From Amphiscolops sp. MND2022 (Eukaryota), in NCBI GenBank assembly GCA_964187785.1, contig OZ076409.1, positions 26,538,001-26,602,000 of the forward strand: DNA of 64,000 bases. The letters run 5' to 3'. Position 1 is the stretch's first letter. Each line of letters starts with the position of its first letter. Below are positions 48,066 through 62,565 of this stretch, in pieces. The notes under the pieces are model-generated. The model made no database searches. It saw only the letters and a list, made by a program, of their open reading frames with translations, and had not been told where the DNA came from. Both the position numbers and the translations under genes were made by a program.

Positions 48066-48400
48066 TGTAACATAGCTGAAACATTCCTATGTTGAGGACA
48101 AAAGAACTGATTGAAAGAACTCTTAAATATTTGACCTTAAAACTATTTTACCTATGACAGAACTTTAACCTTTTAACTATTTAATCAGCATCTATCTTTG
48201 AACAAATAACTATAATAATATTTATGAAGTAAAAAACATCAGTGCTGACAATAACTAGAGAATTGCATGGTTGTGTTTTCAATAAGAAAAGAGAGAACTA
48301 ATCTGAGGATTGTGATCCATGTTCCGAAGACTTGACTGCTCTCCATTCCTGCATCCAGCCGCCAGCCATAAATACTCATCTTAAAAGTAGAGATATAAGT
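48066..48400 (+). repeat. 5' LTR (335 bp)
   Basis: TGTAACATAG...AGATATAAGT; no differences from 62231-62565 seen by eye. Confidence 0.95.
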
Positions 48401-48466
48401 TGGTGACAGGAGTGGGATTCGAACCCACGCATCCGAAGATACTGCGATATAAGTTGGTGACAGGAG
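48401..48466 (+). promoter_or_regulatory. Duplicated tRNA-Leu primer-binding site with an extended tRNA complement
   Basis: 48401-48446 is the reverse complement of a tRNA-Leu-type 3' half (CGCAGT-ATCTTCGGAT-GCGTGGGTTCGAATCCCACTCCTGTCA-CCA). It is followed by GATATAAGT and a second TGGTGACAGGAG at 48455-48466. Confidence 0.9.
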
Positions 48467-49186
48467 CAAAACAATCCTCACTATGCAATACAGAGAAGAA
48501 CTCTCCTTTTTGTGTTGAAAAGCTCACACGAGACCCCCGACCAACCACCCGCGGTGTTCCAGCCACATCATCCACGACCAGCACCAGAGCCACATCATCC
48601 ACGACCGGCACCAGATCCACGAGGCTGTCATAACTGAAAAAACACGGCACGGCAGAAACTGGAAACTACAGAAATCAACGTTGAATTTTTGGTGACTTTC
48701 TTCAATTGGGCGACTTTTGAGGCTACGATATCTGTATTCAATTTCATGATGACTTCAAAATGCCAGTACGAATACACTCGGTGAGTCTGATTCAATTCTG
48801 AAGCAGTAAAGTGGTATAGTGTAGTTTTCGAATTTCATGAGTGCTTCAATTGTTTTCATTTTCAACTGAACTGTGTCTCACAGCTATTACTCTTTTCGGA
48901 ACTCAACTGTGAATTTCTGCAATCCTTTTACTTTTTTCCAATTGCAAATTTTCTCTTTTCACTGCAAATCGTAATTGTTGCAAAAACACTATAAATTTGA
49001 TCTCAAACCTTTCTTGTTTCGCCTTGAAAGTTTTATATTCGTTGTTCAGTTTTCGAAGTTCAAACTACACGTCAGTGTTGGACTGCATTTTACACACTTT
49101 GCTCGACAATTTTTCAATTTTTTCTTCACTACAACCTTAGTTTGCTTTATTCGTCACTCTCTAATTCACACTTAACTTTTAAAATC

Positions 49187-52100
49187 ATGGCTGCTTTACC
49201 TCAACTCTCGCTAACACCCTACTCGGGTTTAGAAAAGGAAGATTTTCGTGAATTTGAACATTTGTTGCGAAGTATCTTAGCAGTAGCTGCGGTACCGCAA
49301 GCGCAGCAAGCCAACTTTTTACAACTTCATCTTCGAGACGCTGCGCTCCGCTATTTTCAAACACTACCGGTAGCGACACGTGCGGACTTAGATCTCTCTT
49401 TGACAGCTCTTCGTGACCATTTTTGTAATCCGAGACTTCAGGAATTGCATATGCTTAAATTGGAAAACTTAAAATTCGATCCGAAAACAGACAATCCAGA
49501 GAATTTTTTAGTGACGTTACAAACGAAAGCACTTAAAGCTTATCCCGATCCAAATCCACCTGCTGTAGCACCAATTGACGGTGCCGCACCGGACGCAGCA
49601 GTCGAACAAACACGATTTGATTCTGAAACCGCCAGAAGAGCCGAAATAATTCATTCAGCGCAACAAGCGCGTTCCGCTCAGATTCGGAGACAATTTATAA
49701 AAAATATGCCGGGCTGGCTTCGAGCGAAACTTTTGGAACAACCGGAAAATACAACGGTTGAAGATTTGTGTATATTCGCTCGGAAACAACTTTCGATCTA
49801 TAACCTTTGTAAGGTTGAAGATTCGGTTATGGATGCTTTCAGTGAAGTGCGCCCTTCAGTATCTGATACTTTAGTTACAGCTCTTACAAAATTGAGCCAT
49901 AGTCAAGAAACTATGGACAATAGACTGAACGAAATGTCCAAAAAACTAGAAGAGCAAGCTACGAATTTTACCACGCAGTTACAAAATCAGCAAAACCAGA
50001 ATAATTCGCAACGCGGCTCTCAAAACTATCGTGGCCAAGGCTATCGCGGAAATCGAGGAAACTACCGTGGTCGGTATTGCGGCAATAACCGTGGAAACCG
50101 AGGTCGAGGTTACCAAGGGCGTGGACGACCTTGGCAGAACAATTACGGCAGAAATTACAATCAGTCGAATCAAAATTACCAAAACTCGAATTTTAATCAG
50201 AATCTAAATAGCCAGCAACAATGGTCAAATCCGAATCAGGACAACTTTCAACAAGGAAATTCTAATCAAGGTTCATCGCAAACTACATTTGAAGTTTTTA
50301 CTCCGGATCCGCATTACATGCCTTATACGCAACAATCAACACATACTTGTTATAATTGCGGATATCCGAATCATCTAGCAAAAGATTGTACCGCGCAAGG
50401 TAACCCTCCACAACGAGGAGCTCAAATGCCGTTCAATCAAAATCAAAAAAAACTAAAAACGCAGCACAAGATTCCACCGCCTACTTCTCTACATGAAAAC
50501 CAGTCTTATGAGCCACACACATGTAACATAGAATTAAATGAGCCAGATATATGCGCTGTTTTGCCTCTTGAAGGTGAAAATCTTTCTTACGTTAAATTAA
50601 AATTTTCTCCGCACATTCGCCGGAGAGCCCTAATTGATACTGGCGCCTGTGCTAATGCATTGCCACAAAATTTATACGATGAATTACGATCGAATCATCC
50701 TGAATTAATTAAAAATGAAACTCCAAATTTTACGTCTGTCCGCATGGCTTCAGGACAACGAGTGTCAGTTGACAATCAGGTGAATCTCACATTCTGTATT
50801 GGAATTCATTCCTTTACCGACAGTTTCCTTGTGCTACCAAAAATGAATAGTGTAATTTTGGGCAACTCTTTCTTTAAAAAACAAAATATTACGATCGACC
50901 CAAAAAACAACTTACTGAAACTGCCTGATTTTACGGTTCAACTCAATGAAATGAAACCGGACGCTGGGAAAAAACGACAATTTGTAAAAAAAATGAAAAA
51001 TATTCCTATCCTACTGAGCAAAAAAGTAAATATTGGAACGCAACAACAAGTCCTCCTTGAATGCTATTTGGATGAATATACTGACCAGTTTGCTAATTGT
51101 ACAGGATTAGTAATTCCAAACAAGAATCTGGAGGAAACAGCCAATATTGCATTAACTTCGTCTCTGAGCAAGATGGATAATGACAATAAAATATATATAT
51201 CAGCGATCAATTTGTCTGATTCCCAGATTACGCTAAATAGCAAAAAACAAATTGCACATTTTGAAATTTTGCGCGAGTCACAGGCCGATTATCTCCTTGA
51301 AATAGATCCACAATTATTGGCCCTAGCAAAAATGAGAAACCCTGACGATTTTGAAAACGAACTCAATCAGCTAATTCACGATATACATTTTCAAAAATTC
51401 GACACTGACAATGGTCGGCCGCCACCAGATTACTCAAAACTTTGGTTTCCGACTCCCGAAACATGTACGGATCTTTCAAATTTGTCACCGCTTCAACGTG
51501 AAATTTACGATCAAATTCTGCAACTTCGTCGTTGTGAAAAACTAAACCCAAAAACCAATTTACACGATAGACAAGAATTTTTGAAAAAATTTGCGTGGGA
51601 TACATGTGTTTTGAGCGCTGATGAAAAGTCAAAATTGGAGGATTTTCTTGTTGAATATCATGACGTGTTTGCAAAACATCGCTTCGATGTTGGGTATAAT
51701 ACCGAATTGAAGATCAAATTAACGCCTGCTCATCAACTTCCGGTATACGTTCAAGGTCCACCAGCACCGATTCATTTGCGTGACGAAATCTTAGTTGAAT
51801 TGGCGTTATTACAATATTTTAACATCATAACTACGTTGTCACATTCAAAATATTCAAGTCCGATATTTGTACATCGCAAACCATCTGGCAAGCTTCGCAT
51901 ACTTATCGATCTCAGAAGAGTTAATCACCTCCTACGCCATGATTACTTAAATAGCAATTTCCCAATTTCAAACATGACCGATGCGACAAACCATTTTGCG
52001 GGCAAGAAGTTATTTTGTAAACTTGATTGTTCGCAAGCATACCATTGCGTTCAAATGGCTGATGACCTTTCGGTACAATTGTTGGCATTTAATTTCGCTT

Positions 52101-61892: not shown

Positions 61893-62221
61893 CTTCACGA
61901 TCCTTCAGTTTAATTATTCATTCATCATCGAACTTTATCAAAACAAATCCTTTCATATATTTTCTTCTGCAGTATATGTAAATTATAAATGCAGTAATCT
62001 TTGGCTCGACAATATTCAACTGGACTGGATCAAATATACAACTTCATCACAACTACATGAAACTGGGACTTGTGCTGCTCTCCAAAACTCTTCTCTTGGG
62101 CTCTTTCAATGGAATTATTGGAAGTGGACTACTCAACTTGGCAATTTCAGCTTCTAATCTCCACTACACTACTCCCCCGACTGTATGATGGCTTTTTTCC
62201 AGATGCCGGAAGTTTCTCGAT

Positions 62222-62230
62222 GAGAGGAAG
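62222..62230 (+). promoter_or_regulatory. Polypurine tract
   Basis: GAGAGGAAG directly 5' of the 3' LTR. Confidence 0.8.
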
Positions 62231-62565
62231 TGTAACATAGCTGAAACATTCCTATGTTGAGGACAAAAGAACTGATTGAAAGAACTCTTAAATATTTGAC
62301 CTTAAAACTATTTTACCTATGACAGAACTTTAACCTTTTAACTATTTAATCAGCATCTATCTTTGAACAAATAACTATAATAATATTTATGAAGTAAAAA
62401 ACATCAGTGCTGACAATAACTAGAGAATTGCATGGTTGTGTTTTCAATAAGAAAAGAGAGAACTAATCTGAGGATTGTGATCCATGTTCCGAAGACTTGA
62501 CTGCTCTCCATTCCTGCATCCAGCCGCCAGCCATAAATACTCATCTTAAAAGTAGAGATATAAGT
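62231..62565 (+). repeat. 3' LTR (335 bp)
   Basis: Matches 48066-48400 and is followed by the TSD AACTG. Confidence 0.95.

Follow-up and report, generated by a model that had tools for sequence, protein, structure and literature searches.

Can a Ty3/gypsy-type retroelement of an invertebrate carry, in addition to gag, pol and env, its own set of genes directed against the defences of its host? This question is raised by a 14,500-bp element bounded by direct repeats (direct repeat search), which occupies positions 48066-62565 of a 64,000-nucleotide stretch from Amphiscolops sp. MND2022 (assembly GCA_964187785.1, contig OZ076409.1, positions 26,538,001 to 26,602,000 of the forward strand). This whole stretch is referred to as the window in the following, and coordinates are window positions unless a locus or contig is named. 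In an initial annotation, a young Gypsy element had been described here with a TARG1-like macrodomain on Pol and, between pol and env, a spliced antisense OTU-like gene, an antisense membrane protein and a small sense open reading frame (ORF), and a complex, possibly infectious long terminal repeat (LTR) lineage with two erasers of host defence marks had been suggested. The analysis presented here points to an env-bearing, errantivirus-like Ty3/gypsy family in which the macrodomain, together with a cassette of up to three genes, would work as a counter-defence module, a reading that we favour as the probable one, if with considerable reserve. The parts of the element on which this reading depends are the following:

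55553..55936, + strand: TARG1/OARD1-type macrodomain at the Pol C-terminus, about 130 residues (PDB match E 4.5e-21)
56559..57699, - strand: antisense four-exon gene encoding 315 amino acids, stop codon at 56561-56559
57699-57394, 57330-57054, 56989-56823 and 56756-56562, - strand: exons 1-4 of this gene, ATG at about 57698-57699
57938..58222, + strand: sense accessory gene s2, 94 amino acids, ATG kept in all eight aligned copies
58766..59161, - strand: antisense gene for a predicted type-I membrane glycoprotein of 131 amino acids with signal peptide, one transmembrane (TM) segment and cytoplasmic tail

On sequence grounds, the identity of the Pol-terminal domain as a TARG1-type macrodomain is solid, in agreement with the first description of the locus. 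The domain matches five human TARG1/OARD1 (C6orf130) chains in the PDB over approximately 125 residues and, moreover, the catalytic Lys and Asp are aligned, LVTKTR with human LITKKR and GSGRDRL with human GCGLDRL. By our own count of the human sequence, these two residues are taken to be positions 84 and 125. The catalytic dyad of TARG1 consists of Lys84 and residue 125, the latter given as Glu125 in the available part of a review (PMC7050489). Within the family, the macrodomain was found in all nine sister elements that were compared, with a ratio of nonsynonymous to synonymous divergence (dN/dS) of 0.13 at a synonymous divergence (dS) of 0.66. Outside of it, Pol-macrodomain fusions were recovered in only two proteins of 86-90% identity by a search which depends on shared words and hence gives weak evidence of rarity.

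The spliced antisense gene was likewise borne out. Its three introns of 63, 64 and 66 nt all have GT-AG ends, and the same exons recur in seven further loci of diverged lineages, separated by gaps of 58-104 nt whose lengths differ by non-multiples of three; the gaps carry 3-6 stop codons each. Furthermore, two database ORFs from other assemblies, P0002 and P0003 (62-63% identity), extend without a break across introns 1 and 2 in corresponding positions; the intron positions are kept in other assemblies as well. The gene is present in 9/9 sister elements and displays a dN/dS of 0.06-0.09 compared to its relatives, with dS above 2 or saturated. A profile search of 1.84 billion representatives gave 72 related clusters, all of them with 59-242 amino acids and thus exon-size or read-through; a full-length spliced homologue is not among these 72 clusters, and a word-index search gave two read-through fragments. 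The predicted protein family therewith also exists in other genomes. At its N-terminus, the protein carries the motif H-x6-H...C-x2-C, which resembles the zinc-binding motif of integrases.

The small sense ORF described initially, s2, behaves as a gene in a six-frame control based on the DNA alignment: its own frame exhibits a dN/dS of 0.08-0.15 and is open in seven of eight copies, whereas in the other five frames of the region dN/dS is 0.26-3.1 and 2-10 stops occur, and the flanks look non-coding. Neither a Pfam match nor a relative in the Atlas was obtained for s2. Its AlphaFold model, with a predicted local distance difference test (pLDDT) of 79 and a predicted template modelling score (pTM) of 0.67, shows a small beta-meander with two helices, for which Foldseek returned no match at E <= 0.001 (best E 0.13). 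In VIA-align, PH, PTB, EVH1 or GLUE-type domains predominate among the highest-ranked rows, with Z scores of only 4.2-5.6, and this PH-like resemblance of the model may reflect a common arrangement only. For the antisense membrane protein, signal peptide, a conserved NGT sequon and the TM segment speak for the original description. The ectodomain is Cys-rich and additionally contains a WRGH motif, the TM segment is Cys-rich as well, and the tail ends in RARRxS in several lineages. Matches by tblastn have 34-57% identity, and the protein was hit in 9/9 elements; its dN/dS is 0.2-0.5. Two further open frames of the region were considered as genes and rejected, namely the ORF at 57509-57853 (+), which overlaps antisense exon 1, and the ORF at 55929-56213 (-), with a dN/dS of 0.7-0.8.

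What sets these genes apart from the remainder of the element is their divergence within the family. A search with the window LTR gave 40 scored matches (of 134 candidates) with 93-100% identity, which form 18 pairs at a distance of 12-18 kb, the window element included, and nine sister elements (within loci L039-L056) were compared with the window copy in 500-bp bins. At the DNA level, identity to the window copy amounts to 85-100% in gag, pol and env, in a patchwork of blocks, whereas between the same elements the stretch 56,000-59,000 is 65-75% identical or unalignable. Correspondingly, dS between the window copy and its sisters amounts to 0.00-0.59 in gag, protease-reverse transcriptase-RNase H, integrase and env, while it ranges from 0.82 to saturated in the OTU-like gene, s2 and the membrane gene of the same pairs. 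One sister has LTRs of 99% identity, yet its OTU-like protein is only 47-72% and its membrane protein only 38% identical. Since the cassette is thus far more diverged than the backbone of LTRs, gag, pol and env, the simplest reading would be that old, diverged cassettes have been exchanged by recombination onto a backbone that was kept similar; a locally raised mutation rate may account for the pattern instead. In the sister elements, the accessory genes are nevertheless kept open under purifying selection (dN/dS about 0.06-0.5). Overall, they are neither absent nor decaying neutrally across the family, although s2 is not present everywhere (see below), and the earlier suggestion of a complex LTR lineage has thus gained substance, as the element is env-bearing and carries genuine accessory genes on which purifying selection acts in its sisters.

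How such a module might operate can be outlined as follows. The sense genomic RNA would serve for the synthesis of Gag and, by -1 frameshifting, of Gag-Pol ending in the macrodomain, spliced sense RNAs would give s2 and Env (with GGTGAGT near 48780 as a candidate donor in the leader), and internal antisense promoters would provide the membrane protein as well as the spliced OTU-like protein, the introns of which, being antisense to the genomic RNA, would never be removed by reverse transcription. By analogy with TARG1, the macrodomain could strip ADP-ribose from Glu/Asp residues of proteins or from nucleic-acid ends; in the favoured reading, this would be ADP-ribose placed by host ADP-ribosyltransferases on proteins or nucleic-acid ends of the element. 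In parallel, ubiquitin or a ubiquitin-like modifier could be taken off element or host proteins by the OTU-like protein, while s2 and the membrane protein might cooperate with Env or target host factors. Jointly, the accessory proteins would form a counter-defence module comparable to the accessory genes of complex retroviruses.

The main rival explanation, in our estimation an unlikely but serious one, holds that the accessory proteins serve the replication or regulation of the element itself instead of erasing host marks. The OTU-like protein might then assist the integrase or nucleic acids as a cofactor or work as a processing protease, the macrodomain might act on ADP-ribosylated nucleic-acid ends or on metabolites, and the membrane protein might be a partner of Env. 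Conservation alone fits both roles, and the N-terminal motif of the antisense protein is integrase-like, with an Integrase_H2C2 signal of E 0.1 in the BEL-type relative described further below. In addition, TARG1-type enzymes are also active on nucleic-acid ends according to the available part of the review mentioned above (PMC7050489). An integrase origin of the N-terminal motif was, however, rejected, as similarity to the N-terminus of the element's own integrase is not significant (hhalign, P 0.33). Within the element, moreover, no part is as diverged or as much exchanged as the cassette, which fits a counter-defence role and is a pattern expected more for genes of host interaction than for core replication genes.

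Several points nevertheless weigh against the counter-defence reading. Purifying selection indicates usefulness to the element and not a counter-defence role as such, and s2 is missing from three of nine sister elements and therefore dispensable. The macrodomain scores 15.8 bits with Pfam Macro (PF01661) versus a cut-off of 22 (E 0.014), so that its classification follows the TARG1 match, and membership of PF01661 is not claimed for it. Further objections concern the OTU-like protein. No exon gave a Pfam OTU match up to E 10, nor did P0002 or P0003, and a genome-wide scan with PF02338 gave 24 matches, none of them at this locus. Profiles of the exons retrieved no OTU chain from the PDB, exon 2 giving zero matches and exon 4 only eIF3b with E 0.8. 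Furthermore, Gly stands in place of the Asp of the usual DGNC box, Gln replaces the putative catalytic His in two of nine copies, and the AlphaFold model of an intronless relative is, with a pLDDT of 41.9, too poor to use.

From this, a second rival explanation draws its support, according to which the OTU-like protein is a pseudo-enzyme or has another fold altogether, leaving the macrodomain as the sole eraser. Besides the missing direct Pfam or PDB match and GGGKC in place of DGNC, the hhalign alignment described in the following ends before the His box, and the single OTU ORFs L036-L038 match weakly (P 0.025-0.38). Even so, this explanation appears rather improbable in view of a bridge that connects the spliced protein to Pfam-positive OTU sequences of the same genome. 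The scan with PF02338 revealed intronless ORFs of 325-347 amino acids at three loci, with two further ones, L034 and L035, being truncated:

L031, 506-1546, + strand: intronless OTU ORF (PF02338 genome scan)
L032, 603-1583, + strand: intronless OTU ORF (PF02338 genome scan)
L033, 2135-1161, - strand: intronless OTU ORF (PF02338 genome scan)

The ORF of L031 passes the Pfam OTU cut-off with 27.2 versus 23.3 bits. Ahead of its OTU part, the intronless ORF contains an H..H..CxxC motif with the weak Integrase_H2C2 signal already mentioned, and in all five loci (L031-L035) these ORFs lie antisense to an integrase ORF, approximately 200 bp beyond it. The integrase ORF in L033, the one that was scanned, contains rve and DUF5641, the latter of which we take to be a mark of BEL/Pao elements. 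This looks like a second retroelement family of the same genome, BEL/Pao-like in its predicted domains, which carries an intronless antisense OTU homologue beyond pol.

Comparison of the spliced family (nine copies) with these ORFs (L031-L035) and five database relatives (P0079-P0083) by hhalign gave a probability of 91% and an E of 1.1e-6 over 242 colinear columns, from residue 2 to 271, far above the shuffled controls: P was 0.59 for the reversed target and no better than 0.11 in any of 20 column shuffles. When unspliced pieces were used for profile comparison, exon 4 mapped colinearly with P 2.5e-4 and exon 2 with P 0.008. The Cys box of exon 2, GGGKCW, aligns with GDGNCLF and its Cys is invariant in 13/13 sequences, whereas in the His box of exon 4, FHCEP, the His is kept in eight of nine sequences, followed by a Glu two residues later; its role as the catalytic His is presumed from the usual order of OTU motifs. 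For L036 and L037, too, the top local match lies on the Cys box in each case. Hence, we conclude that the antisense protein is probably a remote OTU homologue, connected transitively, with its catalytic residues in place. Since PF02338 gives no direct match, the name OTU-like is used for it, and membership of the family is not assigned. The designation in the initial annotation consequently stands by way of the bridge family, but not by any direct Pfam or PDB match. The same gradation applies to the two erasers of host defence marks claimed there, for which the macrodomain type is solid, the OTU part is a remote homology and the eraser function appears as a reasonable inference. As a separate observation, PF02338 also matches within open frames of 2244-2816 amino acids at C13:25891363, C2:103743429, C2:103635724 and C1:3609704, possibly representing other OTU-carrying mobile elements.

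According to the weakest rival, the 3.6-kb region would be a passenger without function for the element, derived from a captured host locus or from a nested fragment. This rival could appeal to the host-like introns of the antisense gene and the patchy occurrence of s2, but is very improbable and already largely refuted by the presence of OTU-like gene, membrane gene and macrodomain in all nine sisters with low dN/dS at saturated dS, by intron positions kept in other assemblies, and by neighbouring non-coding stretches and the ORF 55929-56213 being near neutral.

Starting from the favoured counter-defence reading, a more far-reaching picture can be put forward tentatively, being possible rather than probable in our view. 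An invertebrate lineage of complex endogenous retroviruses (ERVs) might read both strands of its provirus and might possess an exchangeable counter-defence cassette composed of a Pol ADP-ribose eraser, a spliced antisense OTU-type deubiquitinase, a PH-like adaptor and a small membrane protein. Deep cassette lineages would be shuffled onto a common backbone of LTRs, gag, pol and env, and the OTU gene would also be carried by BEL/Pao elements of this host. In invertebrates, this would correspond to the accessory genes of lentiviruses, engaged in an arms race against the ubiquitin and PARP defences of the host.

Concerning the element as such, its ends and priming signals are well preserved in the window copy:

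48061..48065, no strand: target-site duplication AACTG, left copy, 5 bp
48066..48400, + strand: 5' LTR of 335 bp, beginning with TGT, 335/335 identical to the 3' LTR
48401..48454, + strand: 54-nt insert, present in the window copy only and absent from 9/9 relatives
48455..48466, + strand: primer-binding site TGGTGACAGGAG, 12 nt, matching the 3' end of tRNA-Leu(CAG)
62222..62230, + strand: polypurine tract GAGAGGAAG, abutting the 3' LTR
62231..62565, + strand: 3' LTR, direct repeat of the 5' LTR
62566..62570, no strand: target-site duplication AACTG, right copy, same five bases as the left

With LTRs that are identical throughout and AACTG on both sides, the young 14.5-kb element with matching LTRs and target-site duplication is as first described. 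The LTR is directly adjoined by TGGTGACAGGAG in 9/9 sister elements, while in the window copy the insert intervenes, which consists of 45 nt exactly complementary to the 3' part of tRNA-Leu(CAG), followed by a second copy of the terminal 9 nt of U5. Since the 12-nt site as well as the insert match tRNA-Leu(CAG) genes, the family is primed by this tRNA. The 54-nt insert itself looks like a read-through into the primer tRNA, i.e., a scar of reverse transcription, and such a preserved read-through would be direct evidence that the window copy arose by reverse transcription. The insertion is very recent, and the window copy records recent activity of the family but need not itself be competent. 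A 42-nt word of the tRNA has 548 matches genome-wide, mostly in a tandem array of contig 11, and ARAGORN called tRNA-Leu(CAG) in two of three loci scanned. This array (C11:5996566-6028654) comprises very many near-identical tRNA-Leu(CAG)-like units with a spacing of approximately 200-400 bp.

The coding backbone of the element comprises the following features:

49187..55954, + strand: single gag-pol open frame of the window copy, 2255 amino acids, ATG at 49187
49187..50456, + strand: gag part, with zf-CCHC at 50348-50389; the gag stop TAA of the relatives corresponds to 50454-50456 and is out of frame here
50445..50452, + strand: run of eight A inside the frameshift site, seven A in 9/9 relatives
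59547..61892, + strand: env, 781 amino acids, open, with predicted signal peptide and a TM segment near residue 645
59979-59990, + strand: RHRR of env (residue ~146), furin-like site
59991-60056, + strand: Gly/Ala-rich hydrophobic, fusion-peptide-like stretch of env, directly after RHRR

In gag-pol, Pfam domains were identified in the sequence zf-CCHC, gag-asp_proteas (532-618), RVT_1 (950-1115), RT_RNaseH (1180-1312), Integrase_H2C2 (1527) and rve (1605), and these predicted domains stand in the protease-reverse transcriptase-RNase H-integrase order of Ty3/gypsy elements. The reverse transcriptase motif is FMDD, and a Pro-rich linker is located between integrase and macrodomain. Between protease and reverse transcriptase (50900-51500), a weak dUTPase-like signal was detected, with a Pfam E of 0.0034 below the cut-off and no match in the PDB. 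In 9/9 relatives, gag ends at the TAA of CAA AAA AAC TAA and pol follows in the -1 frame, with A AAA AAC as slippery heptamer, and the family layout, as read from these frames, is gag / -1 frameshift site / pol. One extra A in the window copy puts gag and pol into one shared frame, and thus the fusion protein only would be made; this A may truly belong to the copy or may stem from an assembly error in the homopolymer. In the tblastn layout, gag-pol is interrupted at least once more, by a stop or a frame break, in every one of the nine relatives. Hence, gag-pol and env are indeed both open in the window copy, as noted at the outset, but the fused gag-pol frame is peculiar to it (0/9 relatives). 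The idea of a possibly infectious element found no support, given a window copy without separate gag stop and -1 pol frame and nine relatives out of nine with further breaks or stops. For env, no sequence match in Pfam or the PDB was obtained. Its language-model features lie nearest to the Baculo_F and paramyxovirus Fusion_gly clusters (score 0.95-0.96), and the protein may accordingly be F-type, with the build of a class-I fusion glycoprotein, which is to be taken as a lead and not as proof.

Elsewhere in the window, a tandem repeat with a 216-bp period is located at 63221-63952, about 650 bp downstream of the element, in three overlapping 300-nt copies of 99-100% identity. A 238-residue open frame with RVT_1 (E 1e-27) at 36584-37300 is probably a fragment of another retroelement, and a 386-residue ORF at 11774-12934 (-) has no Pfam match.

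The individual parts of the element are reminiscent of several known systems. RNA viruses use macrodomains (coronavirus Mac1, alphavirus nsP3) and OTU proteases (nairoviruses, arteriviruses) to reverse host ADP-ribosylation and ubiquitination. The likeness to these proteins lies in the proposed role only, the reversal of host marks, as the macrodomain in question has a TARG1/ALC1-like Lys/Asp dyad and is not MacroD-like. Antisense genes of retroelements are represented by the spliced HBZ of human T-cell leukaemia virus type 1 (HTLV-1) and by antisense ORFs of plant Ty3/gypsy elements. Like HBZ, the antisense genes described here are encoded on the minus strand of the provirus, but the window element has two of them, one with three introns, and a sequence relation is not claimed. 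In Helentrons and Helitrons, which are rolling-circle DNA transposons, the OTU domain is part of a large transposase protein. What such elements with OTU domains (PMC4067079) have in common with the family described here is an OTU-like cysteine protease.

Similar in overall build are the env-carrying Ty3/gypsy elements with F- or gB-type env termed 'ancient errantiviruses', which are described as widespread in animals in the available text of Chary & Hayashi (eLife 2026, PMC13524379). As in those elements, GAG-POL-ENV, tRNA-primed LTRs, an F-type-looking env with furin-like site and multiple near-identical copies are present, whereas the Pol-fused macrodomain and the bidirectional three-gene cassette of ~3.6 kb between pol and env set the window element apart. 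In the main text of that paper as available, supplements aside, the words accessory, macro, OTU, antisense, frameshift and dUTPase are absent. LTR elements of bdelloid rotifers contain extra ORFs encoding GDSL esterase, DEDDy exonuclease, coiled-coil, TM and env proteins (Rodriguez, Kenefick & Arkhipova 2017, PMC5408684, available part). They resemble the present family as retrovirus-like invertebrate elements which capture enzymatic or TM ORFs, with ORF types common to different retroelement classes, and their dUTPase is situated between protease and reverse transcriptase, the position of the weak dUTPase-like signal reported above. In contrast to the window element, OTU and macro are absent from that text as far as available, and no spliced antisense gene is described in it. 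Finally, teleost epsilon-like ERVs with macro-domain or CNPase ORFs are known (Basta et al. 2009 as cited in PMC4977317, available part). These also carry a macro domain, but belong to the vertebrate Retroviridae and have additional ORFs rather than a Pol fusion.

Such precedents, namely the macro-domain ERVs of fish and the extra ORFs of rotifer elements, reduce the novelty of the parts. The combination of a Pol-fused macrodomain with a spliced antisense OTU-like gene, s2 and a membrane protein, as well as the cassette mosaic, was not found described in the literature searched, with subscription-only papers and Repbase outside the search, and within this scope the initial impression that the combination is new to described Gypsy families has persisted.

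So far, env-bearing Gypsy elements have been treated as three-gene elements, a view that would have to be revised for a family which keeps four conserved genes in addition. If the reading given here is true, invertebrate ERVs can equal the complex retroviruses of vertebrates in complexity, and ADP-ribosylation and ubiquitination would be indicated as host controls of retroelements outside the vertebrates. The divergence of cassette versus backbone, moreover, would offer a natural system for recombination and host-driven diversification in retroelements.

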